Positions 1 through 20,000 of a stretch of DNA of 20,000 nucleotides are shown in pieces. Position numbers and translations under genes: made by a program. How positions within the stretch are numbered: position 1 is the stretch's first letter; each line of letters begins with the position of its first letter. The notes under the pieces were generated by a model that was not told the origin of the DNA, made no database searches, and worked only from the letters and a program-made list of their open reading frames with translations. Origin of the DNA: Proteromonas lacertae (taxonomy: Eukaryota); contig NGBS01001166.1 in the NCBI GenBank assembly GCA_002245135.1, positions 230,222 to 250,221 of the forward strand, read 5' to 3'.

Positions 1-3000
1 ATTTTCATAGAGGTCAATCACTATTTCTATTTTTAGAGAATGCCAAGAATATTGGATTTAAAGGTCATGTTGATTTACACAAATTATTGACATTGACACA
101 ATTTTCATTCAAATCATCAACTATTACCTTATTACCAAATCTAAGACTATCTAATAGAATATCACTCTCTAAAATAGATAATAGTAATAAATTTATTCCA
201 ATACAGAGTATTCCAGGAATTAATGGCATATATTATAGCGATATATTAGATAATCAATATGAAATGATATGTGACATAACAAACTACAATGATGAAGTTA
301 AATCAACTGATTATTACGTTATATTAATAACATATTTAACTGGAGATTTATCAAAATATGATTCAAGTGTTAAAACTGGATTAAAAATAGCATTAGAAAT
401 ATTAAACAATGATAATCCAATATTGAACAGAAATACTCATCCAATCTATATGGATGCAAATAGTAATAACTTAAATGATGAAATAATTCATTATATTAAT
501 TCATTTAATGTTATTGCTATTTATACTACAATGGAATTTACTGATTTTGAAGTATTTACAAATACTGCAAATGAAACAATATTTGAAACTCCATTTATAT
601 ATCTCAATCTAGTACCAAACGAAATAGTGAGTGATAAATACTTCTTAAATGGAATGAATATAGGAAATTTATGGAGAGAAACTAAAACAGCATTAAATCC
701 TAAAAACATATTCTTTATAGGCAGTAAAGGAACAGTATCAGCAAATGCAATATCTTATATATCCTATGATGCTTCATTGAATGGAATTAATGTTAGAGGT
801 AGTTATATATTAGATAGTAATACATACGAACATGCTGTAAATGCGTGTAATGAGATTGAAGCAGAATGTAAACTACATAGTGATTGTTATATTATTACAT
901 TTATGGAAAGGAATTATACTTTGAAGTTTTATGAAGAATATAAGATTGCAAGATTAATATATCCAATTGTGTCTTATAATTTAGATGAATTAATGATTAA
1001 TTCTGTTAATAAAACATATGTATAATTATATTTTTCTTTTTATATTGTATTTAGTATGAAAACCATTATGTTATTGGATATTTCTTCAATGAAATGGAAC
1101 TATCAGATGATGTTGATAATCGATTAAGCGATTACATTAAATCAAATTCATTTTATAAAGATTTTATTGTTACTTCAAACACAGCTATTTTATATTCAGA
1201 AATAATGCTATTATCATCTGTATATTATTGTATTCTAAATTATATGAATAGGTTATTGATATTACAAGGCAAATATCCAAAGAAAAGATTAAATATTCAA
1301 TGAAATATGGTTATGTAATAGGCATAGGAGGTGTAATAAAAGGAAATGATGAAGGATATGCTGATTTTAATGTTCATACAGGAAAGATTAGTAATGGAAA
1401 GATAGAAGAAATTAGTAAATCATTTTTTGTAGAAGTATCAGCTGTCTTTAGTGATTCAACCAAATATTATGATAGAGATTCAAACCAGATTAAAACAAGA
1501 GAAGTTAAGACAATATCTTTCTTATATGTGAGAAATGAAAAGAATGAAGATAGAATCAATCATTATGTATTATATGATTCATTTGTGATTGAATATTTGA
1601 ATAATCAATACAATGGTGTAGCTGGTTATAGAATAAGAACAGCATTTCCTGAATTATATAGTAATGAAGACTTAAAGAATTATGTTCAATCTGTTGCTAA
1701 TAGTGATGATTTATTGTTATTTGTTGGTACTTTGACTTTTGAAGAGAGAGAATCAATTCAACAGCTGTTGATTGATAGTAATAAGTTGTTATTGAGTATT
1801 CATCCTGCTGTTGGAAATCAATGTTATAGAAATATTATTCAAATATCATTTTTTTTCGTTTATTTTTAGCATTTATCTGTTTCTATAATTCTAGTTTATT
1901 TTGGAGTATTGCCTCAACATTATATATTTACAATTATTGCATATTGGTATAAACACAGTAATAATTGCATTATGATATATGGAGATAATGAAGTTAATAA
2001 ACACACAGCAAATTACACTTTAAAATACACTGAAGAAATAAAGAATTATAAATGTGTTGGTGTATATGTATCAGATAATTCAAATCTTACAGAAATCATT
2101 GAAAATGAAATTGTCAATAAATATACTGATGGTGCTGCAATAATAACAGCTTTAGATGAAAGAACAGAATCATTTCTAATAGAAATGAGTAATTATAGTA
2201 GCAGTAATAATTATCTTTATCCAATTATAATCACTGATTATATTGAATATAAATACTTCGAATTAAAATATAAAGAATATTATGAGAACGTTTATTTTAC
2301 ATCATCTTATTCATATCATTTAGATAATGAAGAAACAAGAACAATGTCAGAAACTATTACTAGTTACTATGGCAAATCAAAAGAACTAATGACAACAACA
2401 ACACTTACATTATATTCTGCTTTGAGACTATTTACTGAAAGTTATCCAAATAATTATAACAACAACAGCAATGAAATAAGATATAACATGTATGATACTG
2501 TTATTACATCTCCAATGGGTAAGATTATTGTTGATACAAGTAATCTAATGAGAATGTATACAATGATGATTCAGATAAAGAATAATAACAGTGAAATAAT
2601 ACTAAGTTCTGATTATAGCTATTATGAATCACAATTTGCAGATATTGTATAATTTATCATTATATATATATTAATAATAGTTTAATAATGAATATTTAAC
2701 ATGTCATTTTGAAGAAGGTTCAATATCTGATGTAATAAAGGAAGAGGTTCAAGAAATAGGTATTTGGCTTGAAGATGATGAAAGTGTTAGATTCACAGTT
2801 CAAGAATATCTCTATTATAATAAGTTCACATATGGAACTACTTATGTTGAAAAAACAGTATATTGTTCTGATGAAGAATCGATATTTAAAATGGTTAATG
2901 ATAGTTCAATATCATATATACTTTCAACATGTAATAGAACAGTCAATTCAAATATTGCTGAAGTTGCTAATGAGAAGAATGTAAATATATTCATTTTAGA

Positions 3001-3044
3001 AGATCAATATGAACCAATATGTGAAAAGAGATTGTATATAATAT

Positions 3045-3076
<32 letters not shown>

Positions 3077-6000
3077 GAAATAGTATGGTATTAGGATCTT
3101 CTCCTTCACAAAGACTCATTCCTCTAATTCAATATTTATTTACAGTAGTTGATTCAAATGTATATGTCATTATTCCACTTGCTTTCAACAATTCAATTGA
3201 AATTGATATGATACAAACCACAGTTGATGTAAATGGAGGTAAAGTAATTCAAATCCTATTCATTGATGAAGAAGATGATAGTAAAAATGTGGCAAATGAA
3301 GTGAAAATCAGTAGTTTAATAGCTTCAATTTATAGAAATGGCAATACAGGTGGTATTATACTCAATTACCTTCATAAATATGATAAATACTTATTTATAT
3401 ATCTTGAAAATATGTTAAAATATCATACGCTTGGTCAAAATGAAAAAGAATCTGAATTTATCATTGTTTCAATGGATATTGATAGAATCTTGGATATTGA
3501 AAATCCAAAGTTATTGGATAATCATGTTGCTTTAGGTGTGTCATACATAAGTAAAGAAACTAGTAAATTCTTATATGATATAAGTACAAATACATATGGA
3601 GAAGGAAATATATTAAAGAAAATAGAATCAAGAGGTTTAATTGCTATTGAATTTATATTAACTGTTAGTGTATTATTAGAGAATAGTGAAAATCATGATT
3701 TCATGGATTATATTCATATCAATGAGATTACCACATCTTTAGGAAATATTAGAATTGATTATGATAATTATTTTCCTTCAATAGTTTCCATATATGTTGC
3801 AAATACTACAAATATATTACATATAAGATATGTTTTATCCAACCAATGGCCTGGTGAAACTTATAGAATAACTTATCAAAATATCACATTATTTCCTTTT
3901 TGTGATGTTACAAATAAGAATAAAATTCAAGATAGATTGTCTATTAATGTCATTCTATTTGTTCCATTGCCAAGTAATTATAAATTAGAAGGATATAGAA
4001 TGTTACTCTCTTACTTATCAATAATTGATTATATTAACAAAAACTACAGAGTTAATGGGTTATATATAAATCCAATCGTTATTGATACAAAGGGAGGGTA
4101 TGAAATAGTTAGAGAGGTATTATCAAAGATGTCAATAGAATATAACACCAAAATAGCATTGGGAATTGATAATAGTTTGAATAGGAAAGAAATAGCAAAT
4201 GAATTAGATGATTATGATGTATTATTAGTATATCCAAATGATTTTGAAGGATATGAATGCAAAGAGAATATTATATACGTTGGAGTTCCATTTGCAGCTA
4301 AAGTAACTTACTTACCATGGATCTTAGGTCATTTAAATAACAAAATTTATGTTGTTTATACAGATTCATATGATAATGATGTTATTTCTAAAATGATTAG
4401 TCATGAGTTGAATTTAAGAGGATATTCTATTGTTGGTATTTCAAAAGTACCAGAAACTAATTATATACTAAAAGAAGTGGTCAATATGGTACATATGAAG
4501 ATGAGAAATGGTGGTGTAATATTATCATTCTTAAAAGGAAATGCAGCTAAAGAATTATACAAAGCATGTTATGATGAAGATATTAAATATCCAAATTACT
4601 ATATTATAAGCGATAATTTGAATGTAGCAAATATAAATAATGATGAAGGAGTGTATATGATGAATCATTATATATGGAATACTTATCCTGAAGAGTATTA
4701 TGATGTGGAAGAATATGTTAATGTTTATAACAACAAGTATACATTCATTACAAATCATACAACTAGTTTCGTTCCTGCATTTCTTTCTGTTAAAATATTA
4801 GCATTAGCATTTCAACATATTACATTCAATGAGAATTATTCTTCTGCTTTTACAGTTGATTCTATTCTCAATAAAGTTCATAATGTTTCAACATCACAGA
4901 TTAAAATATATAACAACAATTTCGCATCTTTTACTTTGAGTATAAAACAGATTAAATATAATGAAACTTCAAAACAGTGTTATGGAGATATAATCTATAA
5001 ATATCAATCAAATTCAGAACCAAATCCTTGGGCATCTACTTACAATCTAAATGGTAAATTTATATGTGATTGGAATGAATCAAATCCAAATAAAAATGAA
5101 ACAATTCCAGTGGATGCTGTTTCAATTGCATTAGTATTTCCATTAAGTGATCTGGAATTAGGTAGTTATGCAACTGATATATTAGAATCAGCCATATCAA
5201 CATTATCTGAAATAAATGATAAAAATGGAGGTGTTAATGGTTTGTATATTGATTACATTGTTTTTGATTATAAATATGAAACTGAATCAATACTAACTAA
5301 GATTGCTTATGATATATTAGAGAATGAAAATATTGTGTCTGTTTTTGGATGTTTGAGTGAAACTTGTAAGAATATTATTTCCAGTATATTGCAACAGAAA
5401 TCAATTTCATTATGGTATCCAGGAACAGCATATTGTCTCAGATATGATATCTAAAATTGGTAATATAAGAACAGCAGTATTCTTTTATTTAAGTGGATCT
5501 TTATCATCATCAGTTTTACATGAAATAGAAAATCAAGGTATTAGTTTATCTACAGTTAATCTAATTCTAATGAGATTTTCAAAAGCTGATTATTCAGATG
5601 AATTATTGATGAAATTATCAGGAGCTTTAATACCAGCAACTTATTCTTCAGATTTATCAAGTCCATTAGCAAGATCATTTCAATCAGATATGAAAGGTGG
5701 ATTAGGAAATACAGTAGAAATACCAGAAGAAATGGAATATGTATATTCAGCCTTGCATTTATGGAAAAATAGTTTAGAAACTAGTATAAAAGACAGTGGA
5801 GGTGATATAAACCCGCCAATTGAATATATTCGATTGAATATGATTGATAAAACATTTACATCTCCATCTGGTCCAATGATCTTAGATAAAACATTATATG
5901 TAAAGAGAAGTATGTATGTATTTAGAGTTAGTGATGATGGTAAATTTATTCAAATATATCCAAAGACAGGATCAACTGTATTATATGATCCAATTCCATA

Positions 6001-7248
6001 TCCAGATGGTGTTCCAGCAGAATGTAATTTTGGTAAAAAGAAAGTATATTTTGAATATAATACCATGATGAAAGCTGTTGCTTATGTGTTAATGAGTATT
6101 GCAATAGTTTTATCATTTTGGTCATTGTTATTCACATATGCATCAAGAAATAAAATGATTATTAAATCATTTGGTAGATCTTATAGTTTTATATTTGCAG
6201 TACAGTTGTTGATACTATCATTAGCAGTAATACCAATGGCAATTGCACCAACTAAAAGTAATGGGATTTGCACAGCAAGAGTTGTATTCTTAGGTTTATG
6301 TGTAAAAGGAGTGTTAGGTTTAATGATAGCTAAATGTATGAAAATATATAACAGATATAGAAGATTGAAAAGAAACATTAAAAAGAGTAGAATAAAAATG
6401 GTTAGATTATTATTTACTTGGTTGTTTTTTGAATTATTAGAATCATTAATATTGATATTGTGGTTTACTTTAGATCCAAATGAATATGAAGAAACGTATA
6501 GTCAATCTCTCAGTGGTTATTTTTTCGATGAGTATATTAGAGAATGTACTACATCAACTCCATTTTTGTATATAATATCTATTATATATTTCATGAATAT
6601 ATTTCTAGAATCGTTGAATTTATTACTGATGGAATTCCATTAATAATTCTGTTATATATCACTAATGTAATAAAGAATAAAATTAATGATCATAATGAAG
6701 GAACAGCAATGTTTATTTCTAGTTGTGTGATATATATCTTTTTTTCATTAACATTTATCTTGTTATTAGCTTCATCTTAATGTTTTTTACCTGTTTTTGG
6801 TGTTGTTATGACTGTATTAGATTTTTATGTTAATTCAGAACCTAATACTGTTTTGTTATTAAGAGCAATGGGAATTGAAATTACTCAAATTTTAATGATT
6901 ATGTTACAATATGGAAATATCTTTTTTTTTACACAATTTTCTTAATGATGTTATTTAATTCTATTGTTTACTAAAAATGATTAATGTTTATATTGATGAT
7001 GATTCAAACAGAATAACACAATCAGGCAGCCAAGCAAGTAAAACTGAAAAGAAATATCCTTTTCATATCTTATTCATCCTATTTATTTTCTTAATTTATT
7101 CAATCTGTTAGATTCTTCCCATCATTCTTCTAACTCTCAAAACAAAACTCAAACCTCTACATTCCTTACATCACACATGAAATCTATGTTTACAACATCT
7201 ACATTAAATGCAATTACAAAAAATCAATCATCAAGGAAGTTGTTATAA
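1..7248 (+). CDS. Giant class C-like GPCR: >=5 tandem UrtA/AmiC-like periplasmic-binding (Venus flytrap) domains + 7TM; 5'-partial; one internal frameshift/deletion near 5430
   Basis: Hand-spliced exons: <3-1019, 1055-1219, 1252-1842, 1900-2646, 2681-3033, 3084-6567 (frameshift ~5430), 6609-6733, 6791-6916, 6972-7053, 7104-7248. GT-AG introns 1020-1054, 1220-1251, 2647-2680, 3034-3083 and 6568-6608 each restore the frame. UrtA/AmiC-like motifs: LSEINDKNGGVNGLYIDYIVFD, VFGCLSETCK, LLVYPNDFEGYECKENIIYVG, SPSGPMILD, EPNPW..ICDW. Class C 7TM motifs: IIKS (ICL1), CTARVVFLGL..LMIAKCMKIY (TM3), LILWFTLDP (TM4), ECL2 Cys, HNEGTAM before TM6, LQYGIK at the end of TM7. Confidence 0.85.
1843..1899 (+). 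other. Probable U12-type intron, AT-AT termini, 57 nt
   Basis: Starts ATATCATTTT; branch-like TTCTATAAT at 1881-1889; ends TTTAT. Removes the in-frame TAG at 1867-1869 and gives CYRNIIQ|FGVLPQH, matching the repeat copy ECKENIIYVGVP. Confidence 0.7.
3050..3076 (+). repeat. (TAT)9 microsatellite inside GT-AG intron 3034-3083
   Basis: Directly visible; explains the poly-Tyr in ORF 2891..3094. Confidence 0.9.
6734..6790 (+). other. U12-type AT-AC intron, 57 nt
   Basis: Starts ATATCTTTTT; branch-like CATCTTAAT at 6773-6781; ends TTTTAC. Removes the in-frame TAA at 6778-6780 and gives continuous TM6 SSCVISVFGVVMTVLDFYV. Confidence 0.85.
6917..6971 (+). other. U12-type AT-AC intron, 55 nt
   Basis: Starts ATATCTTTTT; branch-like TTTTCTTAAT (6937-6946) or TTATTTAAT (6951-6959); ends TTTAC. 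Restores the frame to LQYGIKMINVY, the class C TM7/helix 8 junction. Confidence 0.85.
7054..7103 (+). other. Probable U12-type intron, AT-AA termini, 50 nt (alternative AG acceptor at 7111)
   Basis: Consensus U12 donor ATATCCTTTT; branch TTTTCTTAAT at 7086-7095. The AA acceptor at 7103 opens a Ser/Thr-rich tail (NLLDSSHHSSNSQ...SSRKLL, stop 7246-7248). Confidence 0.65.
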
Positions 7249-7302
7249 TAATTGTTTTATTTTTATTATTTTTAGTATTAAACACACAAAATAGTCAAAT
7301 AA

Positions 7303-10300
7303 CTATTTAATATTATAAAAATGGTTTGATAATTCTTTCTTTAATTCTTTACCAATTCCATCTATTGTTATTGATTTAAGTGATGAAAACGATTTTAAAA
7401 ACGATACTAATTCTAATTTATCTATCTCTTCTTTTATTGTTATTGTTAATAGACTTAAACATTCAAACACTTCTTTGTCTTCTGTCATCAATCTTAATTC
7501 TTCTTCATTTAACTTATTTCCTGATAGATTTATCTTCTGCAATGGCTTATGAACTTTTAATCTTTCTATTAACATTTTTAATCCTCTTTCACTCATTCCT
7601 ATATCTATTTCAATTAAAAAACTATGTTATATTCATAAAATACTTGAAATATTTAATATTAATGAATAATTATCATCAATAAATTTATCAAAATTTTCAC
7701 AAATAATCTCTATTCCTTCATCTCCAATTGGATTGTTAAATATTGAAATATAATTTAAATCTTTTGGTATAGATTGAATTAATTCTGATAATCCTTTATA
7801 ACTGATATGATTATTGGATAAATCAAGTGTTTCATAATCAATCTGTTTTATGATGGGAATGTGAGAATCATTGATATTTAAATCTATTGCATTATATACC
7901 TTGATTTAATACTGGATAAATCATAGTATTTATACATATCACTTTTTTTAGTACAATAGTCTAGATAATACTCCAATTCTTTATTTTTCCAAGATGAATT
8001 TTTCATCTGAATGAACGGATATTCTTCATTTTCTAACGATTTTGAACATATTGATTTTAATCCATTCATTTTGATATTATTCTCATTGAGATTAATTACA
8101 TTACACTCTCCAATTAAATATAATATATCTGTAAACATTACGGCACTTTCATCATTTATTGATGTATTACTCAAATTAAGATCACTGTCTATCATTATAT
8201 CCAACTTCTCTTCCAACAATTTTAATCCAATATTACCAATCGGATTATCTATTACACAGAATAATAAAGATTATATAACAATATATATATATATATATAT
8301 ATACTGTTAATAATTAATTGTTCAATATTATCATTCTCTTTCACATAATTCATTAAATAATCTATACCTTTTGAATCAATATTATTATCAGCTAAATCAA
8401 GTACTTCAATCTTTTCATCAGCAATTCTTAAACCATCAACTAAATATTTCATTCCTAATGACGATAATCCCATTTCTATAAAACATTTATAAAACAACAA
8501 ACTATACTCGAACAATTCAGATAACTTCCTAATAAATGGATATGCAGAGATAAAATTCTCATTCCTTCATCTCCTATTTCATTTTCATATAATTGAAGTT
8601 CTTTTAGATTTGGAAATGAAGATAAATTGTTTATCAGTATTTCTACACTTTCACATGTCAGATTATTATCTAAACAAATGGAAATTTAAAAACATACAAC
8701 TCAAATCTAACACTTCTATTTCTTTAAATTCATTTAATCTTAAAGTAATGAATGATTTGAAAAAATCATCATTAATTCCACAATGATTCAGATTTAATCC
8801 ATTATTTTTGTATTTGACAAATTTAATTAACTCTGGAATATCTTTGTCAATCAACAATTCTTTATTTCTTCCATAAATATCAAATACTATTTTTGAAATA
8901 GAAAATTTTGAGAATACTGCTTTTAATCCACTAGAATAAATATCCCAGTTGTATGTAATATTTATTTTCTTTAGATTTGGATATTTAAATAACTCTTCTG
9001 ATAATATTATCATTGATTTATCATTTAAATTCATTCCACAAAGATTCAATTCATTCTTGTCATTTATTAATAAATGAAATATGGAATTAATAATTTGAAT
9101 CCTATTGGACCAATTGGATTATCTATTTCATAATAATCAATACAAATAGAAAAAAATCAATACATTCAAGATTTACATATTTAAGTTTCATAAATGGAAT
9201 TGATTTTACAAATGATTCTATAAAACGATATGTAAGATTACAACTACATAAATTCAACTCTTGCAGATTTGATATTTGATTATATAATGCTCCAAATAAA
9301 GGCTGGTATCTGATCTGAATATCAAGAATTTCTAAACAAGTAAATAATACTACAATAATACCAAATTTTAGTTTTTTAAAATTGGATAGTTTTAGTAATC
9401 TAAAAAAATAATCCATCCCTTCTTCACATAAACAAACACAAAGTTTATTAGCAATGACTCTTTCATTTAAATAATGAAGAAGGAGATTGAAAATCATTTC
9501 ATCTAAACAACAAATCTTGTTTTCTTTGTTTTTGTGATAAATTTGAAATTTCAGTTTATCTTTTATTGATTCATCTCTTTTGATTAGTTTCATCATTAAT
9601 AATATCGATAATATTCTATCATTTGGTTTATTGTTGTAAGATTCAATCAAACCATCTCTCATTAATTCATTCTTATTATATTCTATATAATAGTCTCTTT
9701 GAGTATCTAATGGAGTTATTTCTAGTAAATAATCATTATTGAAGAATGTATATTTTCTTTCATTATATATCATTATATTATTATTTTCATCTCTAAATAT
9801 TTCACTCACTTTTATCATTTCTTTTCTCAACTCTTTTAAACTCAATCTTTCTTCATTCTTCACATTCAACATTCTCTCCATCATCTCTTCCATCATATCA
9901 TCACATTCTACATCTATACGATATTTACATCTCAGAATTTTATTCAGTGTTCTGTTGATATTATTATCTTCATTAAATGGTAATTTTTTGTTTATCATTT
10001 CATATAATATACAGCCAATAGACCAAATCACACTTTTATCATTACATTCTAATCCATTCAATTCTTCAGGGCTTTTGAAGCAGATATCATATAATCTTAT
10101 ATCTTCTTCTTTTCTCAATGTGTTTAAAAACAAATCACAGATCTTTATTTCACCTTCACTTTCATATACTATGTTACTACTCTTCAAATTGTTTATTATT
10201 ACATCATATTCACTCAATACCACTAATATATCACATATTGAACATATAATAGCACAAATATCACCAGTTATCAACGAATTATTATGAATTATTTCTTCTA

Positions 10301-10599
10301 AGTCTCTTTCATAATATTCTCTTGACAATATCATATGATCACCATATTTATTCATCTCAAACACTTTTGAAGGATATAATAACGATTTACAACTATCTAA
10401 CAACAAGGAGTCAGTCTCATAGAATTTTAATATATTCTTTTCTTTTATATCACTAACATTTAACATTTTCAATTTTTTAATATTACTTCCATATTCTACA
10501 ACTATATCTACTTCAGTTACACTCTTTTCTATTCTCTCTTTTAGCTAATAATAATAAATCAATAAAAATACATCTGAATTTGAGGGTAATATCGAGGAT
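7303..10599 (-). pseudogene. Protein kinase-like (probable pseudokinase) + RNI-like leucine-rich repeat gene; 5' end apparently interrupted by the Polinton; frameshift near 9080
   Basis: Exons 10599-10572, 10544-9362, 9331-9164, 9122-8698 (frameshift), 8669-8508, 8475-8305, 8248-7913, 7883-7644, 7604-7303, joined by GT-AG introns of 27, 30, 41, 28, 32, 56, 29 and 39 nt. Kinase motifs: INNLKSSNI, IKICDLF, SPEE, IWSIGCILYEM, ERLS. LRRs: LKELQLYENEIGDEGMRIL, IEVLDLADNNIDSKGIDYL, LQKINLSGNKL. Confidence 0.8.
8281..8303. repeat. (AT)n microsatellite inside minus-strand intron 8249-8304
   Basis: Directly visible; explains the IYIYIY runs in the ORF track. Confidence 0.9.
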
Positions 10600-10700
10600 A
10601 GTAATAATAATAGTAAATAAAGGTTCTGGCACACCGAGCCGTATGACTCGGGCTCCTGGCACACCGAACCAAACTTTTTAAAATTACGTGACATATGTCA
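10600..10700. repeat. Putative left terminal inverted repeat (inner boundary unknown); candidate 6-bp target site GAGGAT at 10594-10599
   Basis: Begins 5'-AG(T) with a short tandem repeat, as Polinton termini do. GC-rich patch with direct repeat CTGGCACACCGA (10626-10637, 10656-10667) and perfect palindrome TGACATATGTCA (10689-10700). Confidence 0.7.
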
Positions 10701-10751
10701 TATTAGGTCATAATTTATTTTTGCATTTTCTAGAATATTCTAATTTCATAT

Positions 10752-11060
10752 ATGGATAATCTAATTAAAGAAGAAGCAGAAAATGGTTTTGATTCTTTAT
10801 ATGAAATGTGTAATGTATATCTCAATAAGAATGATGATGGGAGCAATGACTATCAAACATCAATTAAAATAGCATGTGAGATTATATTAAAATTAAAAGA
10901 ATTAAATGAAGAATATCATTTAGGATTAGATGATATGGTATTACATCAAATAGGAAGATTAGAAGGGAAAAAAATAGCAAGTCAATATTTACAAAAAGAA
11001 TTAGAAAAACAATTAAATGAAATAATACCAAGTTTAAACAATATGTTAAAAATCAAATAA
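10752..11060 (+). CDS. Hypothetical protein (102 aa, helical), Polinton accessory ORF
   Basis: Clean ATG-TAA intronless ORF with protein-like composition; no motif recognised. Confidence 0.6.
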   Translation: MDNLIKEEAENGFDSLYEMCNVYLNKNDDGSNDYQTSIKIACEIILKLKELNEEYHLGLDDMVLHQIGRLEGKKIASQYLQKELEKQLNEIIPSLNNMLKIK

Positions 11061-11068
11061 AAAATTAA

Positions 11069-11542
11069 TTAGTCTTTATCATCTTCCAATCTGTTTTTAA
11101 AAATATAATATATAGAATTTAATTCTGAATTTGTATCGATTAAATAGAGATAATGATTTTTTATATATCTAAAATTTTTAATAGTATTTGCATTCAAATT
11201 GAAATCTTCTTCAGAAATATATGCAAAATCTTCTACATAGAAAGTGTCCAGTTTATTAATTAATTTTTCTAAGTCTTCTATAATATCCAGTCTATAAGAT
11301 GTTAATTCAGATTTGTTAAATGTGGTTGCTATTTTACTTCTGTTATATTTCAATTCGATATTTTGTATGAAAGTTACAAAAGACTTTATTTTATCTCTTA
11401 GATCTGTTTTATCTTTACTACTAAAATTTTCACTTAGATTTAATTTATAGACCCTTCTACTTATATCATTTAAACTACTAATATAATTTTTAAGTACATC
11501 AAAGAATACATAGAATTCATATACTCTAGCAAAATTACTCAT
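11069..11542 (-). CDS. Hypothetical protein (157 aa), Polinton accessory ORF
   Basis: Clean intronless ORF converging on the previous ORF with an 8-nt gap; no motif recognised. Confidence 0.65.
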   Translation of the reverse strand: MSNFARVYEFYVFFDVLKNYISSLNDISRRVYKLNLSENFSSKDKTDLRDKIKSFVTFIQNIELKYNRSKIATTFNKSELTSYRLDIIEDLEKLINKLDTFYVEDFAYISEEDFNLNANTIKNFRYIKNHYLYLIDTNSELNSIYYIFKNRLEDDKD

Positions 11543-11775
11543 ATTTTTTGGTATAAATTAATTAATTAATTAGATATACTACTAATAGAAATTGTTCTTC
11601 CAATTCAAATCTGATCCAAAGAATATAATATAATTCAAGTAAAAGAAAGAAATATAAAGCAATAATATAAAATAATAAATATAAGTCGTAAAAGAATTGA
11701 TATATAACTTTTAGAAATTTCTAAAAGAATAAAAATAATAATAAAAATATAAAAAATTAATTTTTAATTTTCTAG

Positions 11776-14700
11776 ATGAACCCTTTCATCCCTCCTTATT
11801 ATTATTATTCAAACTTTAATTATTATAGTCCACCACCATTTGGAGCACCTTATATTCCTCCTCCACAAAATTATGGATTTAATCCCATGCCCATGCCATA
11901 TCCAGGTATGGCACCTCCTAATATGTATGAACCACCTCCACCTATTCAAAATATTCCAGTAGTTAGAAATTATGTTCCACCAAGAAATCTAGTTACAAAT
12001 ACAAATCCTGGTTTCAATTATTATCCTGGAAATATAGGAGTAGATTCAACACCTCAAATTAATATTCCTGAACCAGGATTTGTAACACCACCTCCCAAGA
12101 GAAGATTAGATTTCGAAAACATAAGTCCTCCAAAAATACAAAGAAAAGGAGGTATGCAGGTTCAAATGCCTAATCCAAATCCTAATCCAAATCAACCTGT
12201 TGTTGTTGTTAATCAACCTCCACCAAATGCACAACAGCGTAATAGAGTAGCTGATTTAAATTTATCTTATCAAGAAGAAAGAGATTTAAGAGAAGCAAGT
12301 GATATATTAGAAAATCATCCTACTAAATTATTAAAATTACCATATGAAAAGAGATTATATTATATGGACTTAATTCAGAGAAGTACAGATAATTATAGTA
12401 GAACATATCAAATTAACTTTTTAAATGATGTAAATGGTAAAGATCCAGATGCTGTTGTTGAAATTATAACTGATCCTAGTAGCCCATTAATTACTAAAAT
12501 AAGAGAATATTTAGAAGATGTTAAATATATAAAAGTAACATTAAGTTTTAGAAGTGGTTATATAGGAGCAGACGATCCAGATTATAATAATCCAAATGGT
12601 AATAAAATTACAAATTGGGTATTCTTAGAATGTAGACCTGTAGTTATTACAGAATCAGAAATGAATGTTGCACATAAAATATTAAAAGATAGAATAAGAA
12701 CAGAAATGGGACCTTTATGGCATACTGAAAAATCAAGTTTAAAATTTAGACATGTTGGTGAAGTTGAAGTTCAATTAGTCAAAGCAACTGCTATGGCAGG
12801 TAGTGGTAAAAATAAAGAACTTCCAGATTGGATTAGAAATAGAAAATGTGTTATATCAATAGATAATAATAAAGAAAATGATCAATTATGTTTTCTATAT
12901 GCTATAGCAGCAGCATTTTTTCATGGTAATAATAATAATAAGAATTTAAATAGAGTAGAACAATATAAAGAATATATTAGAGTTAACTACAATTATAGTA
13001 TGTTATATTTCCCAGTAGATCCTATAAAACATAAAAAACAAATTCATGAATTTGAAACAATAAATCATATAACATTAAATATATTCAAAATAACAGATAA
13101 AGAAGTAGTTCCAATATATGTAACACATATAGATAAGTTCAATAATTATCCACATGTGAATTTATTATATAATGATAAACATTATTCTACTATTACAAAA
13201 TTAAATGTAATATTAATACCTAAAGGAAAGAAGTGTAAAAATGGTTATCCTAGATGTAATTATTGTTTTGCTTTATTATCAACAGATGAAAAAAGAATAC
13301 AACATGAAAAATATAATTGTCAACAACATAAAGGTATTATAAGAAATTTCCCTGAGAAAAATATTCAATTAGAATTTAAGAACTTTAAATATATGCAACT
13401 AATACCTATAGTAATATATTGGGATACTGAAGTTTATCAGGAGAAAGTAACAGATCCAATTTTAAATGAGAAAGGTATTTTATCAAAGCATATATTATCC
13501 AGTTGGTGTTTATATGTTGTATCAAAATATCCTAATATATATCCTAATAAAATTGAGTATGATTTTAAAACACCTAAAGATAATGAAACAGATTTAGAGG
13601 ATAGATTAATAGCTAAATTTATGGAAATACAAAAAGAAATATTAGATTTATATGAAGAAAAATTAAAAAATCCTGAAAAAATGATAGGATATAATAGAGA
13701 AGATCCTAAAAATAAATTGAATTATTGCATATACTGTAAAGAACCATTTGATTATAGGAATAAGAATAAGAAACCTGTTTTACACCACGACCACTTTAGT
13801 GGACAATATATAGGTAGAATATGTAATAATTGCAACTTCCATGTATGTTTAAATAATATGCCAATCCCTTGTATTGCTCATAATTCCAAAAATTATGACA
13901 ATAATTTCATTATTAGAGGATTGTCCAGATGGGATAATAAGTTAAGAGATGAATTTTGTAAAGAAAATAATATTGATCCTAATGTAAATTATGCTTCAGA
14001 TACTGAATCTGATAGTGATACTGAAGAAGAAGATAATACTAGTTATACTAATTCTATTCCTGTTCCACATCAAGATAGTGATACATTTACTCCATTACCT
14101 CCTTATACTAATGGCTTTATAACAGCAAATAAAATAAAAGATTATGTGAAAAATTTAAGAAAAGAAAAACAAGAAGAAAAAGATGATAATAATAATTTCA
14201 GTATGAGTCCATTACATGATTCTTTAAGTGATATGGAAACTCAAGAAGCTGAAAGTGAAGTAATCCAAATTAATAATGAAGAAGTTAATGCATTGTTAGA
14301 ATTAGAAGAAATGTTAAGAAGAGATAGTCCTAGAAATGCAGAAGATGTTATAGATGAAATAGATGAACAATCTGCTTATAGAATTATTAAATGTAAAGAT
14401 GGTAAAATAAGAAAATATAAAAACAAAAAACAATATAAATCACAATTATCAGTATTACCCAAAACAGATAATAAATTTTTATTAATAAAGTTCAACAAAT
14501 TATACTTTATGGACTCTTATCAATTCTTACCAAGTTCTTTAGATTCTTTAACAAAGTCATTATATACTCAAGCAAAAAGAGATAATGGAAATTATCAAAA
14601 ATATTTCAGTTATGTATATGAAGATATTTATAAAAAATATTCTGCTCCTGGTAAATTGGATCATGATATGAATATTGATGCTTTTATCCATAAATGGTGT

Positions 14701-16692
14701 TTATCTAAAGGATATTTTCCATATGAATATGTAGATTCATTATCTAAATATTTTAATACTTTTGAACTACCTCCTAAAGAAGCATTCTATTCAAAGTTAA
14801 AAGATGATAATACTGTAACAGATGTTGAATATGCTAGTTGTCAGGCTTTATGGAAAGTTATTAGATGTGATAACTTAATGGATTACAATTTATTTTATCT
14901 CAGATTAGATGTTCTTACATTAACATGTGTATTTGAACATTTTAGAGATGTTATATGGAATAATTTTACTTTAGATCCATTATGGCATTGTAGTTCACCT
15001 GGTTTATCTTGGAGTATATTCCTTAAAAATTGTGATGTAAAAATTGATTTAATAAGTGACTCTGATATTTATGACTTTATACATTCTGGATTAATAGGTG
15101 GGATTTCTATGGTTGGTAGTATGAGATATGCAGAGTCTTGGAATCATTATCAACCTCAATGGCAAGAGAAAAATAAAAAGGAAGTACAGGATCCAGATAA
15201 TCAAACATATATTATGTATATGGATTATAATTCTTTATATCCAAGTACTATGGCTAGCATGAAGTTACCATATAGTGAATTTGAATGGATTGAACCAACT
15301 ACTGAAAATGTAAAGAAAATATTATCATTACATTACTATGAAGAACAAAGAGAAAAATATTACAATACAGAATGGATTAATAAAAATATGTATGGATATA
15401 TTCTAGAAGTAGATATTTCTCCTCCTAGTAATAGTAATGAAAGAAAAAAATTTGCTGAATATCCTTTGTTACCTGAAAGAAAAATAGTTGACTATGATAA
15501 TTTATCTGAAATACAAAAGAAATGGGCAGAGTCTTTAGGATTAGTTTCAGAAGTTAAAAATAATATTGATAAAACATATAAAGTTAAAAAGTTAAAGTCA
15601 AATGTTCCTAAAATAGTATGTGATTTAACAACAAAATACAACTATGTTGTTCACTATCAATATTTGAAATTTGCATGTGAAATGGGTTATGTTATACATC
15701 ATATTCATAGAATTATCAGATTTAAAGAGTCTAATTATGCACATAACTTTGTAATGATGAATCATAACTTAAGAAGACAAGCTAAATTAGAAGGAAGGGA
15801 TGCCGATGCTGATACTTTTAAGCTTATTCTAAATAGCGCTTATGGAAAGACATGTGAAAATACTGAGAATAGATGTACCTCCAAATTGGTTAATAATGAA
15901 GAAGACTTTTTACAGTGTACTTCCAATCCATTTTATAGAAGTTTTATTGCTATAGATAATAGTAACTTACGTATATGCAAATTTCAAAAATATAAATGCA
16001 CTATTGATAAACCATCTTATATTGGTATGAGTATATTATGTGAATCTAAAAGGTTAATGGCTCAGTTCTGGTATGGACATTTATATAGGAAATATGGGAG
16101 TAGTTTAAGATTATTGATGAGTGATACTGATAGTTTCATATTTATGGTTCAAACTAGAGATTTCTATATGGATATTATGAACGATCCACATTTTGAAAAG
16201 AAAGTTGATACTGGTAATCTTAATAAACAATACTTAATAACTAGAGGTATACACTATTCAAATGTTAATCAAAGTTCAGAACTTAACTTATTAAAAATAG
16301 AAGAAAATAAGAATGGTTTATACTCTATTACTAGATTTGCAGGATTAAAACCTAAAATGTATGCCTATGAAAAAGTAAGAGTAGACGATGATATACATTG
16401 TGTTACACATGATAGTAGAGCTAAAGGAGTTACAACTGGATATAGAATTAAAACTTGTGATTTTGACTTTTATAGAAAAATATTAACAGATGCTGAAGAT
16501 GAAAAGTCTTACAGAGTAGATAAAATCAAACAATATAGTTTCAGAAGTGTTAACCAAACTTTATATACTATGGAACAAAATAAGTTGGCTTTTAGCATAT
16601 TTGATTCTAAAAGGTATTATTTAGATGTTTATCATAGTATTCCTTTTAATGATTATTATCCACCTATTATTAATAACACTACTAATGTTTGA
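11776..16692 (+). CDS. polB: Protein-primed family B DNA polymerase (pPolB) polyprotein with OTU-like module, Zn finger and endonuclease VII/HNH-like Zn insert
   Basis: ExoI IYWDTE, ExoII HNSKNYD, MDSYQFLPSSL, KGYFPYEY, ExoIII YLRLDV, motif A MDYNSLYPS, motif B KLILNSAYGK, motif C SDTDS, KMYA, KGV. N-terminal LCFLYA...KHY; CNYC..H...C; CIYC..HHDHFSG..CNNCN. Confidence 0.95.
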   Translation: MNPFIPPYYYYSNFNYYSPPPFGAPYIPPPQNYGFNPMPMPYPGMAPPNMYEPPPPIQNIPVVRNYVPPRNLVTNTNPGFNYYPGNIGVDSTPQINIPEPGFVTPPPKRRLDFENISPPKIQRKGGMQVQMPNPNPNPNQPVVVVNQPPPNAQQRNRVADLNLSYQEERDLREASDILENHPTKLLKLPYEKRLYYMDLIQRSTDNYSRTYQINFLNDVNGKDPDAVVEIITDPSSPLITKIREYLEDVKYIKVTLSFRSGYIGADDPDYNNPNGNKITNWVFLECRPVVITESEMNVAHKILKDRIRTEMGPLWHTEKSSLKFRHVGEVEVQLVKATAMAGSGKNKELPDWIRNRKCVISIDNNKENDQLCFLYAIAAAFFHGNNNNKNLNRVEQYKEYIRVNYNYSMLYFPVDPIKHKKQIHEFETINHITLNIFKITDKEVVPIYVTHIDKFNNYPHVNLLYNDKHYSTITKLNVILIPKGKKCKNGYPRCNYCFALLSTDEKRIQHEKYNCQQHKGIIRNFPEKNIQLEFKNFKYMQLIPIVIYWDTEVYQEKVTDPILNEKGILSKHILSSWCLYVVSKYPNIYPNKIEYDFKTPKDNETDLEDRLIAKFMEIQKEILDLYEEKLKNPEKMIGYNREDPKNKLNYCIYCKEPFDYRNKNKKPVLHHDHFSGQYIGRICNNCNFHVCLNNMPIPCIAHNSKNYDNNFIIRGLSRWDNKLRDEFCKENNIDPNVNYASDTESDSDTEEEDNTSYTNSIPVPHQDSDTFTPLPPYTNGFITANKIKDYVKNLRKEKQEEKDDNNNFSMSPLHDSLSDMETQEAESEVIQINNEEVNALLELEEMLRRDSPRNAEDVIDEIDEQSAYRIIKCKDGKIRKYKNKKQYKSQLSVLPKTDNKFLLIKFNKLYFMDSYQFLPSSLDSLTKSLYTQAKRDNGNYQKYFSYVYEDIYKKYSAPGKLDHDMNIDAFIHKWCLSKGYFPYEYVDSLSKYFNTFELPPKEAFYSKLKDDNTVTDVEYASCQALWKVIRCDNLMDYNLFYLRLDVLTLTCVFEHFRDVIWNNFTLDPLWHCSSPGLSWSIFLKNCDVKIDLISDSDIYDFIHSGLIGGISMVGSMRYAESWNHYQPQWQEKNKKEVQDPDNQTYIMYMDYNSLYPSTMASMKLPYSEFEWIEPTTENVKKILSLHYYEEQREKYYNTEWINKNMYGYILEVDISPPSNSNERKKFAEYPLLPERKIVDYDNLSEIQKKWAESLGLVSEVKNNIDKTYKVKKLKSNVPKIVCDLTTKYNYVVHYQYLKFACEMGYVIHHIHRIIRFKESNYAHNFVMMNHNLRRQAKLEGRDADADTFKLILNSAYGKTCENTENRCTSKLVNNEEDFLQCTSNPFYRSFIAIDNSNLRICKFQKYKCTIDKPSYIGMSILCESKRLMAQFWYGHLYRKYGSSLRLLMSDTDSFIFMVQTRDFYMDIMNDPHFEKKVDTGNLNKQYLITRGIHYSNVNQSSELNLLKIEENKNGLYSITRFAGLKPKMYAYEKVRVDDDIHCVTHDSRAKGVTTGYRIKTCDFDFYRKILTDAEDEKSYRVDKIKQYSFRSVNQTLYTMEQNKLAFSIFDSKRYYLDVYHSIPFNDYYPPIINNTTNV

Positions 16693-16776
16693 AACTTTTA
16701 TATTTCTTTTTATTATTATATTTTTATATTATTATTATTTCTTTTGTTTTCTTTATATTATAAAAAATAAAAAATA

Positions 16777-18144
16777 ATGTATTTCGGATGGGATCCTGCT
16801 AAAGCATTTTTTAATACTATGAATGATGTAGGTAACTTAATGGATAAAAATATACAACATTTACCTAAACAACCTAAATATCCTGAATCATTGCAATATT
16901 ATATGAATTATGGTAGAGATGGTATACCTAGAGAACCTCCTACTACTGACTATAAATTATATCCTAATCCTGAATATTCTCAATATCAAAATCGTTTACA
17001 ACAACTATATAATAAATATCATTATTTAAGTGATAGAGATTTTATTAAAATGGTAATGAATCCTGCAGATAATAATGAAGTACCACCACCTATAGATGCT
17101 ATAAAAGAATTTTTAGCTAGACAACCTGGTCATCAAATAGTAGACTTTCAGTATAAAAAGGATAATCCTTTCGTTAGTATTAAAAAGCCTGGTTGGTTCC
17201 AGATGGATATAGTTTATTTTTTACCTGAAACACATCATCTGTATTTTATTGAAACTAACTCTCGAAAAGTATGGGTAGTACCTTTGAAAAGAGAAGATGG
17301 AAATACTTGTTTAAATGCTTTCTTTTCTTGGTATTATAAAGAAGATCAAGAAGCTTTTTTAAATCCAAACTATCAACCTAATATAGTAGCTAAAAGAAGA
17401 GTTATTAGTATATTAAGTGATCAAGATGATAGTTTTAATAAAATAAAAGAATTTTGTGATACAGAAGGTATAAATACTTATCAAAAAAATCCTTCAGAAC
17501 ATAGAATAATGAGTGTATTAGATAGAAGTGTATCTATGGTTAAAAAACTATTATATAAACATCTTGTTGAAATAGACTTTCCTGATCCCTTTCGTTATAG
17601 AAATCAAACTCATGCTAAAAGCTTTCCACCTAGTGCATATATGAATCAGTGGCTTACTAACTTTAATCATGAAGTATATAAAGTAGTACAAGACTATAAT
17701 AATAAACCTCATCCTGCATTAAAAGGATATACTCCTAATGAAGTATATCATTCTGAATTACTACAGAAAAGAGTATTAGTTGAAAGCATAAATAAAAATG
17801 TAGATAATGAATTTAAACTAGAAGATAAACAACGATTTAAAGTAGGCGACTATGTTAGATTTAAAGAAAGAAGAAGACAATTAGATAAAATAACTACTTG
17901 GAGTGATGATGTTTATATGATTATAAATAAGTTTAGATTTTCATATCAAATAGGTGATACTAATGGTAACTTTGTACCTAATGTTAGTAATCAGAGGTTT
18001 AAGCATTATGAATTAGAATTAGTAGAAAGAGCGCAAGATAGAAATGCTTATTTTAGAGCGTATCAAGCAAACAGAAGATTTTATAATCAACATTTTAGAA
18101 AAACATTAAAAAGACCAGGACTCAAAAGAAAGGGAATAGTATAA
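16777..18144 (+). CDS. int: Retroviral-like (rve/c-integrase) integrase of Polinton type
   Basis: WFQMDIVY, ILSDQDDSF, VLDRSVSMVKK, YNNKPHPALKGYTPNEV, C-terminal SH3-like FKVGDYVRFK..WSDDVY..ELELV. Confidence 0.92.
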   Translation: MYFGWDPAKAFFNTMNDVGNLMDKNIQHLPKQPKYPESLQYYMNYGRDGIPREPPTTDYKLYPNPEYSQYQNRLQQLYNKYHYLSDRDFIKMVMNPADNNEVPPPIDAIKEFLARQPGHQIVDFQYKKDNPFVSIKKPGWFQMDIVYFLPETHHLYFIETNSRKVWVVPLKREDGNTCLNAFFSWYYKEDQEAFLNPNYQPNIVAKRRVISILSDQDDSFNKIKEFCDTEGINTYQKNPSEHRIMSVLDRSVSMVKKLLYKHLVEIDFPDPFRYRNQTHAKSFPPSAYMNQWLTNFNHEVYKVVQDYNNKPHPALKGYTPNEVYHSELLQKRVLVESINKNVDNEFKLEDKQRFKVGDYVRFKERRRQLDKITTWSDDVYMIINKFRFSYQIGDTNGNFVPNVSNQRFKHYELELVERAQDRNAYFRAYQANRRFYNQHFRKTLKRPGLKRKGIV

Positions 18145-18154
18145 TATATATTCC

Positions 18155-18176
18155 ATTAATTAATTAATTAATTAAT
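18155..18176. repeat. Self-complementary (TAAT)n tract between convergent genes; candidate bidirectional 3'-end signal
   Basis: ATTAATTAATTAATTAATTAAT is a perfect 22-bp palindrome between the integrase stop (18144) and the minus-strand stop (18180-18182). Confidence 0.55.
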
Positions 18177-18179
18177 TAT

Positions 18180-19427
18180 TTAAAGTTCTGATATTTCAAT
18201 AAGTGCTCTGCTATTTACAGGCACTTTTGATAAATTATTTCCTTCTTCTGGAGGAGGAGGAGGTTCTTCTTGTTTAATTTTGGGTTTTGGAGTTTCTTTT
18301 TTTTCTTTAATAATATGGTGTTCTTTTGAAACTCTTCTTCTTTTGTTATATTTTCTATCTTCTTCATAATCACTATCATGATCACTATTATCACTACTAC
18401 TACTACTACTACTATCACTACTAGAACTATCATTTTTCTATATCAACATCTTCATGAGGGAATTTCTGGATATTTGAATGTAGACCATCTATATATATTT
18501 AATTTCTGTTTTCTTTAGAAAATACCACTTTTCATTATTTGATTTAGCATCTTCCTGAAAATTTTTGAAAAATCACCTGTAAATTGGAATATGTAATGTG
18601 CTGAATTTGGCAAATATTTTTATATTACTATTAACATATTTTATTTCATCACAATTAGTTACAGCTATTGTTACTATATTATTTTCTAAAAATTGATTTT
18701 GAAATTCTATATTATTATGTAAATTCATTATATAAGTTGTTGGTAAATATTTCATATAATCATATAAATCAAATTGAAAATCATTAATTAATACATTGTT
18801 ATTTGAATTAAATTTTATCTGGATTTTAGATGAAGTAAAAATTATTTTGTATTTATTTATTAAATTCCTATATTGATAAAAAAAGTATTATCATCCAAAA
18901 TTTTATTAAGAGGAATAGTATTTTTGCAGAATAATGAATTAATTTTACTTCGTGTATTTGTTTTACGATTTTTTGCATCCATATACTTATCTTTTAAATA
19001 AATAAAAATTTCTTGATTTGCAACAAAGGATAAACTATAATATTCTGGATTGTCATCACATATATAAAATTTAGTATATTTACTTTATTTTTGTAATCAC
19101 AACTATATTTGATAGTTGTCCATATATAATTAATATTATTTTTGAGATTATTATTATGTTCCTTAATATATAATTTGATAGGATTATGAATAAACAAAAT
19201 TTGAAATATCTTTCATCCATAATATAAAAAGGAATTTCACAAGACCATGTATAAAAATGTTGACCTCTATTCATATTAGTAACTATTTTTAAACACATAA
19301 AAGTGTTGAATAAGAAAATCCAATTTCGATACCCAGTCCAACTGTGGGTATCTTCATATGCAATATAATAATTGCCTTCCATGTATTTTTTGACACAGGA
19401 ATAATCAACACCAATATTTCCAGACAT
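18180..19427 (-). pseudogene. Single ~410-codon hypothetical ORF broken by several frameshifts/stops; Ser/Asp-rich, basic and poly-Pro C-terminus
   Basis: Fragments 19427-19198, 19197-~19070, ~19070-18880 (FYICDDNPEYYSL...KYMDAKNRK), ~18878-18573 and 18437-18180 (NDSSSSDSSSSSSDNSDHDSDYEEDRKYNKRRRV...EEPPPPPEE) can be chained; the first three joins each need one extra base in a homopolymer run. Confidence 0.55.
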
Positions 19428-19583
19428 TTTAACTAATTATAATTAAAAAATTATGTAAGTGTTTGCTATTATTATATAAAATAATACAACTAATAAAAAC
19501 AACAAAAATATTTAAAACAAATACAGAAATAAAGAATAATATTTTTATGAATATCAGTAAATATAAAAAATATTTATATATAT

Positions 19584-20000
19584 TTATATAATATATTTAT
19601 ATTTTTTGAAAGACTTTTTAAATAATTCAATTTGTTTTTCACCAGTCTGAGTATTAAAATTAGTGCTTTGCTTAAAACTTTTATTTTTCTTTAATATATT
19701 TTCTAAAAATTTTATAGCAAAAAATCCACAATTTGATGTTGTGGACTTTTGATTTTGAATAGCATTAACTTTTAACTCATATTCTTTATTTTTGTTTCTT
19801 TTGAATTTTTTAATAGTATTTTTAAATGTTTCAAAATTCTTTGGATTTTCTCCAAAAGAATCATAGTATAAAAAATTGTTATGAACATTATCAATCACAA
19901 GAGATACCCAATGACCTATTTCATCAGGTTTTGCAGATGTATTTAAAGTGTTAATTATTATTCCCCATCTATTTTTAGATGTATTTATTGGGAGGACTAA
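19584..20000 (-). CDS. pro: Adenain-like (clan CE) cysteine protease, virion maturation protease; 5'-partial
   Basis: Frame open to the window edge: WGIIINT...IGHWVSL...YYDSFG...IQNQKSTTSNCGFFAIKFL, containing the His, Asp, Gln and Cys catalytic residues. Confidence 0.9.
   Translation of the reverse strand, partial: LVLPINTSKNRWGIIINTLNTSAKPDEIGHWVSLVIDNVHNNFLYYDSFGENPKNFETFKNTIKKFKRNKNKEYELKVNAIQNQKSTTSNCGFFAIKFLENILKKNKSFKQSTNFNTQTGEKQIELFKKSFKKYKYII

Follow-up and report, generated by a model that had tools for sequence, protein, structure and literature searches.

The locus analysed here raises the question of whether four short, AT-starting stretches in a receptor gene are introns of the minor (U12-type) class and, if they are, whether they are old or newly gained. 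It lies in a 20,000-nt window (the whole stretch of DNA analysed; G+C content ~25%) of a Proteromonas lacertae contig, the features of which are collected in Table 1. The gene was assigned to the class C GPCRs based on the presence of both a 7tm_3 domain (Pfam E 9.5e-19) and an extracellular periplasmic-binding-type domain (Peripla_BP_5, E 4.7e-30), and both domain types were also confirmed in the ESM Atlas. Its 5' end lies upstream of the window, which covers the 3' part only. Removal of five GT-AG introns (32-50 nt) and four AT-starting introns leaves the receptor frame open except for one break near 5433. A preliminary description of the locus had reported four of nine introns to be U12-type; our count of four minor introns agrees, with nine referring to the part of the receptor gene inside the window.

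Table 1. Features of the 20,000-nt window (positions are those of the window).
Feature	Position	Strand	Length (nt)	Phase	Basis and remarks
Class C (7tm_3) GPCR gene with tandem Peripla_BP_5 domains	1-7248	+			Pfam
GT-AG intron	1020-1054	+	35		Frame restoration alone, without homologue comparison
GT-AG intron	1220-1251	+	32		Frame restoration alone, without homologue comparison
Probable U12-type intron, AT-AT	1843-1899	+	57	0	Homology; in-frame stop; within one periplasmic-binding repeat
GT-AG intron	2647-2680	+	34		Frame restoration
GT-AG intron	3034-3083	+	50		Gene model; P0002 and P0076 start with intron-like read-through here
Deletion junction	5426-5436	+			tblastn of P0001; ~1,236 codons missing and frameshift (stop 5452-5454)
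GT-AG intron	6568-6608	+	41		Gene model; P0001 and others end by read-through here; lies immediately 5' of the three minor introns
Predicted U12-type intron, AT-AC	6734-6790	+	57	1	Homology; in-frame stop; branch-like CATCTTAAT at 6773-6781
Predicted U12-type intron, AT-AC	6917-6971	+	55	1	Homology; frame-shifting; branch-like TATTTAAT at 6952-6959 or TTTCTTAAT at 6938-6946
Probable U12-type intron, AT-AA	7054-7103	+	50	2	Perfect donor ATATCCTTT; 7103 end putative
Protein kinase and leucine-rich-repeat gene	7303-10544	-			Pfam
Polinton-like element, intron-less	about 10,600-20000				Pfam for polymerase
Protein-primed DNA polymerase B of Polinton-like element	11776-16692				PF03175
Integrase-like frame of Polinton-like element	16771-18144				No Pfam match
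Adenain/Ulp1-type protease of Polinton-like element	19584-20000	-			

A full HMMER search returned 65 homologues of the receptor. Of 26 proteins traced to their source from the top of the family, nearly all are Logan or JGI sequences, the closest being Logan proteins. Like other protist class C GPCRs with periplasmic-binding (Venus flytrap-like) domains, the receptor combines 7tm_3 with Peripla_BP_5/6, but the family differs in that homologues of 2,000-3,000 residues carry five to seven tandem binding domains. Word-index protein searches gave no match among longer proteins or short C-terminal fragments; with the 1252-1842 exon they returned a single orthologue fragment. In JGI metagenomes, none of 65 stretches from a protein search was confirmed as a related locus, and none of 45 loci carrying the 6917 junction pattern had a tblastn match.

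The break near 5433 was examined by alignment to the closest homologue, P0001. Residues 1-743 of this protein match 3208-5433 at 71% identity and residues 1979-2360 match 5426-6571 at 77% in another frame (tblastn); the missing part corresponds to roughly 3.7 kb and three binding-domain repeats of the orthologue. Because ~1,236 residues and the frame are lost here relative to P0001, the receptor copy is, judged by this alignment, either a recent pseudogene or an assembly misjoin, and it may therefore not be expressed. No further lesions were found in it over ~1,120 aligned residues. A GT-AG intron at 5460-5493 was considered as a repair of the break and rejected, since a stop remains. The preliminary description makes no mention of this deletion and frameshift.

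Downstream of the receptor, the gene for a protein kinase with leucine-rich repeats has six GT-AG introns of 28-56 nt, none of them minor, and probably a seventh near 10546-10580; a one-base frame slip was also observed near 9077. The remainder of the window is occupied by the Polinton-like element, in which the frame at 16771-18144 is tentatively named integrase-like from its motifs. In IMG/VR, no viral contig related to the element's polymerase was found. At the border between host gene and element (10626-10670) we also observed a G+C-rich 15-nt direct repeat with copies 30 nt apart, which may be the end of the element. Polinton-like viruses have been described in Proteromonas lacertae (bioRxiv 10.64898/2026.07.28.741278).

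Whether the AT-starting stretches behave as introns was addressed by enumerating every single removal of 18-90 nt, with any ends, that opens the reading frame, the products at 6734 and 6917 being scored against 16 homologues running through the last helix. Among the 1359 open solutions at 6734, a length of 57 nt scored best; the 978 solutions at 6917 gave 55 nt and the 1249 at 1843 gave 57 nt. At 6734 the AT-AC register takes ninth place, the eight better-ranked solutions being slides of this 57-nt deletion without spliceosomal ends; at 6917 it ranks third with 16 references and first with the four closest; and at 1843 the ATATC register ranks eleventh, again behind slides of the same length. 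Among single introns of 18-90 nt, none with GT/GC-AG ends opens the frame at 6734 or 6917, and the best of the five that do so at 1843 stands at rank 455. Across the 3' region, the best of 4132 models with none, one or two GT/GC-AG introns scored 433, as against 851 for three AT introns. Similarly, an HMM of 16 homologue C-termini rose from 81.6 bits with the GT-AG intron only to 132.3, 150.1 and 155.3 bits on successive removal of the 6734, 6917 and 7054 introns, the best GT-AG alternative reaching 102.0 bits. The frame thus needs exactly 57, 55 and 57 nt out at 6734, 6917 and 1843, lengths that fit ATATC starts and, in two cases, AC ends. These results bear out the earlier proposal that splicing opens a frame that GT-AG introns fail to open, and its donor coordinates were recovered exactly (ATATCTTTT at 6734 and 6917, ATATCCTTT at 7054, ATATCATTT at 1843). 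With these lengths fixed by homology, independently of the splice motifs, we regard it as highly probable that the 6734 and 6917 stretches are real AT-AC introns.

The 1843 stretch is likely to be a real intron as well, given that the spliced form outscores the unspliced form in all 15 homologues compared. The orthologue fragment P0116, which is 74% identical, reads I-S-F at the junction and further on passes into the following exon with its frame shifted. It also has Leu where the window has Phe, and since Leu requires C as the last intron base, its intron at this site should end in C. P0116 is thereby inferred to carry a 55-nt AT..C intron starting with ATATC, in which case the AT end in the window is probably a mutated AC. 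A homology between the 1843 and 3034 introns was rejected, as their positions in the periplasmic-binding repeat differ.

At 7054 the helices are already complete upstream of the intron, and the evidence comes from the tail. Acceptors in frame at 7094-7124 yield a tail of 70-80 residues with ~32% Ser+Thr, comparable to homologue tails of 59-89 residues with 30-35%, and give tail scores of 181-211 versus 26 unspliced. The acceptor at 7103 was picked for its AA end and its position 9 nt past the branch motif; an AT-AG intron ending at 7111 was rejected as the main solution (score 10). We consider the 7054 donor likely to be real, with its acceptor at 7103 placed loosely. From the AC, AA and AT acceptors of the preliminary description, AC at 6790 and 6971 and AT at 1899 are thus retained, and AA at 7103 is putative, unfixed by homology. 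Its term "ultra-short" has to be taken as relative: at 50-57 nt, the four exceed in length the eleven GT-AG introns of the window (28-56 nt, median 35).

The splice signals were compared with the donor consensus RTATCCTTT (as given in bioRxiv 10.1101/2020.10.12.336362), to which the donor at 7054 matches in 9/9 positions and those at 6734, 6917 and 1843 in 8/9; the five GT-AG donors match in 5-7/9. Intron ends are AT-AC twice (6734, 6917), AT-AT at 1843 and, provisionally, AT-AA at 7054, which are canonical or tolerated ends; among the non-canonical ends of animal minor introns, AT-AA and AT-AT are the most frequent two (PMC10639083). Candidate TTAAT/ATAAT branch motifs end 10, 13, 9 and 11 nt before the acceptors of the 6734, 6917, 7054 and 1843 introns; for the conserved U12 branch sequence TTCCTTRAC, the reported optimum is 11-13 nt from the 3' end (PMC3584512). 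The motifs are weak (5-7/9 matches to TTCCTTAAC, against 5-6/9 for AT-rich strings in the GT-AG introns), and in two of the introns, 6734 and 6917, the 9-mer that matches best is located further away, 39 and 26 nt upstream. Across the window the bare donor with one mismatch shows no enrichment (71 seen, 64.9 expected). As many as three ATATC[ACT]TTT motifs within 720 nt (6541-7260) occurred in 0.1% of 1000 shuffles, which averaged 0.16; the + strand of 1-7300 contains five such donors, one of which (2313) lies in coding sequence. A composite donor-branch-AC motif (2 seen, shuffle mean 0.007) was discarded as evidence, having been tuned on the two introns themselves. Taken together, the donor matches, the failure of GT-AG solutions and the HMM gain uphold the proposed U12-type character.

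In minor introns, U11 pairs with the donor motif and U12 with the branch motif. Under the mechanism proposed here, the four AT-starting stretches would be removed by a minor spliceosome, which the host would have to possess, with U11 pairing with the ATATCYTTT donors and U12 with a branch motif that is relaxed and shifted towards A/T, 9-13 nt before the intron end. The 3' site would be set by its distance from the branch motif, such that AA and AT ends could be tolerated. On the signals described above, we consider minor-spliceosome processing of the four introns probable.

How old these introns may be was examined in the homologues, whose intron states were read from protein read-through (genes called on unspliced DNA) and not from DNA. 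Because many homologues were called on unspliced DNA, read-through into an intron reveals its donor. At the 6734 codon, a phase-1 donor read-through was found in all seven clusters that break off there versus none of the 19 proteins that continue, the latter being those captured by the anchor, with four distant ones uncaptured. Three of the seven (P0013, P0025 and P0063) are of an AT-ATC type, reading Y-I-F or N-I-F, and four (P0022, P0050, P0052 and P0129) are of a GT-ATA type, reading C-I-I, S-I-T or R-I-I (C/S/R-I-I/T); the C-I-I read-through also fits a GT-starting U12-like donor. One AT-type protein, P0020, breaks off in H-I-F-F at the 6917 codon; the last residues of P0039 are I-Y-L-F, a phase-2 minor-type read-through that is a loose match, five codons from the 7054 site. 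Both run through the 6734 site unbroken, and some copies therefore lack the 6734 intron. The AT-type homologues share 23-39% identity with the window receptor, and the 1843 position is shared with its orthologue fragment P0116. The suggested comparison of intron positions thus finds the 6734 and 6917 sites common to diverged copies, and we consider it likely from this distribution that the 6734, 6917 and probably 7054 introns predate subfamily diversification, after which individual copies would have lost some of them.

Phylogenetic trees of 39 and 21 rows placed the AT-type rows as several subgroups on one weakly supported side; three GT-type rows fell in one starred clade, and the AT-side clade was unstarred (92/94). 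One change of state suffices for the 6734 site on the tree, and a single switch of class between an AT-AC and a GT-type intron likely occurred there. When the tree is rooted on distant homologues, the AT-type rows nest together as one group, outside which the GT-type rows occupy two separate places. Grouping all GT-type rows into a single clade was not rejected (p-AU 0.077 and 0.176), so that the switch may have gone in either direction; by default assumption it would have run from minor to major.

Further break sites were also observed among the homologues. Ten proteins (P0005, P0007, P0008, P0009, P0010, P0019, P0030, P0031, P0046 and P0053) share two more intron-like breaks in the 7TM region, one following helix 3 and the other a P-N-E-Y motif; both are GT-type by read-through and absent from the window gene; on these two sites, intron turnover in the receptor family is apparently high. 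P0002 (a cluster of 8) has intron-like read-through at its start, which falls on the 3034 site, and is unbroken through 6568, 6734, 6917 and 7054, and its sister P0003 breaks at 6568; P0002 is either a partly spliced transcript contig or a case of 3'-biased intron loss. In the P0004, P0010, P0014 and P0022 clusters, members come from separate runs on near-equal-sized contigs, including seven P0010 members on contigs of 8,113-8,132 nt whose frame ends in intron-like read-through.

The stops and shifts at the 3' end might be attributed to pseudogene decay or assembly errors, as the large deletion and frameshift near 5433 and the slip in the neighbouring gene could suggest. However, the extra DNA is non-coding and T-rich, measures 55-57 nt and carries consensus ends, and homologues from other sequencing runs break at the same sites, which decay would not produce; this explanation is refuted for 6734 and 6917 and has next to no probability overall. 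Removal by the major spliceosome in a host that lacks the minor one, whether by U2-type AT-AC splicing or by relaxed splicing machinery, is unlikely. The GT donors here start GTAT or GTATA, close to ATATC, the weak branch motifs and the GT-type intron at the 6734 site in homologues are compatible with it, and neither minor snRNAs nor U11/U12 protein genes were found in the 20-kb window, where an Rfam scan gave no match at all, a single window being uninformative for the genome. Against this, all four AT donors have C at +5 and T at +7 to +9, a combination that no GT-AG donor of the gene, of which there are five, shows in full; the AT introns form a longer length class; and their AC, AA and AT ends at a fixed branch distance are typical of U12 introns (PMC3584512; PMC10639083; bioRxiv 10.1101/2020.10.12.336362). 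Recent insertion of introner-like mobile elements mimicking minor splice sites would account for the similar lengths and for the identical first 12 bases of the 6734 and 6917 introns, with a Polinton-like element in the window and Physarum as a proposed precedent (bioRxiv 10.1101/2020.10.12.336362). The interiors are nonetheless unrelated, all six intron pairs falling in the shuffle range (p 0.12-0.90), and the four introns lack terminal inverted and flanking direct repeats. Given also the positions shared with diverged homologues, ongoing or element-driven gain is unsupported; the "active minor-intron gain" of the preliminary description is not sustained, and its introner form is largely refuted and very improbable.

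More weight, though still on the doubtful side, attaches to the possibility that the lineage made minor introns de novo, or converted major to minor introns, on a large scale long ago, giving a U12-rich genome like a small Physarum. At the rate of Blastocystis ST1 (346/35,412), four of nine introns in one gene has a binomial P of ~1e-6, for a gene chosen post hoc. In addition, the 1843 intron interrupts one repeat of a UrtA/AmiC-like domain, termed bacterial-type here on account of its Pfam family and of the name that P0036 bears in JGI, and the five matched Peripla_BP_5 stretches of the orthologue P0001 lie in one uninterrupted frame of 2,367 residues. An intron in a single bacterial-type repeat gives a hint of an old, post-LECA gain; loss from the other repeats would explain it too. 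The outgroup rooting, with AT-type rows nested and GT-type rows outside, also favours this possibility, but the single GT-type clade that was not rejected speaks against it. Likewise, the neighbouring kinase gene has no minor intron among six, U12 introns are reported to cluster in genes in 21/21 genomes (PMC7367187), and U2-to-U12 conversion is held to be highly unlikely (PMC3584512). One gene cannot show a whole genome to be rich in minor introns. The reading that we prefer, with good confidence on the sequence comparisons above, is that the four U12-type introns are old features of the receptor subfamily, not ongoing gain, and are removed by the minor spliceosome.

These introns were also compared with known systems. 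As in descriptions of U12-type introns (PMC3584512; PMC10639083), they have an RTATCYTTT-type donor, a candidate branch motif ~9-13 nt from the end, AC, AA or AT ends, positions kept in diverged genes, loss and class switch, and a phase other than 0 in 3/4 cases. Unlike those described, they make up four of nine introns in one gene, three of them consecutive, their donor +6 and branch motif are shifted to A/T, and the host gene is a lineage-expanded receptor and not an information-processing gene. Blastocystis ST1, reported to have 346 minor introns in 319 genes (~1% of introns; PMC5608401), 77% of them AT-AC with a mean of just under 42 bp (PMC10639083), is similar in having very short, AT-AC-dominated minor introns, longer than its 30-nt major ones, in a compact protist genome (PMC5608401; PMC10639083). 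It differs in the receptor family, table S5 of PMC12129017 giving zero GPCR-family-3 domains in 8/8 Blastocystis strains; an origin of the gene in those strains is therefore improbable, and a Proteromonas-like gut stramenopile is the better fit. For Proteromonas lacertae (27% G+C) the same table gives 116 GPCR-family-3 C-terminal and 182 periplasmic-binding-protein-like I matches, and matches to U11/U12-25K and RNPC3/RBM41 are also reported (PMC12129017). For Physarum polycephalum, bioRxiv 10.1101/2020.10.12.336362 describes an RTATC[C/T]TTT donor and a branch 9-12 nt upstream. The two systems have in common this donor, the AT-AA and AT-AT ends, which are frequent in Physarum, a minor character kept between paralogues, and introns missed by GT-AG annotation. 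In contrast to Physarum, the present introns have no TTTGA branch motif and no inverted-repeat signature, in a comparison that covers one gene and its neighbour. Among other protists, minor introns are reported in Pelomyxa (PMC8887013; PMC10639083), and no minor snRNAs in the ciliates examined in PMC13685798, which disfavours a ciliate host. A literature search, with most subscription journals outside its scope, returned no title dealing with minor introns of Proteromonas or of this receptor family.

The origin of minor introns is an open question, and a 2023 survey describes very little evidence for their de novo creation outside Physarum (PMC10639083). It is possible, though clearly less likely than not, that the present lineage has created minor introns de novo to a substantial extent and so joins Physarum as a second case, with 1843 gained in a repeat, 6734 changed from major to minor, and AT-AC introns at several percent or more genome-wide; if so, such introns would have gone unseen because GT-AG annotation truncates the genes that carry them. 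What is unusual is the density of minor introns in one lineage-expanded receptor, together with minor, major and absent states across its paralogues. A paralogue family with an AT-AC, a GT-type or no intron at one codon offers a system in which to measure loss, class switch and possible gain. Annotation restricted to GT-AG introns would truncate these receptors before the last two membrane helices, and the family is therefore probably mis-annotated wherever it is present.
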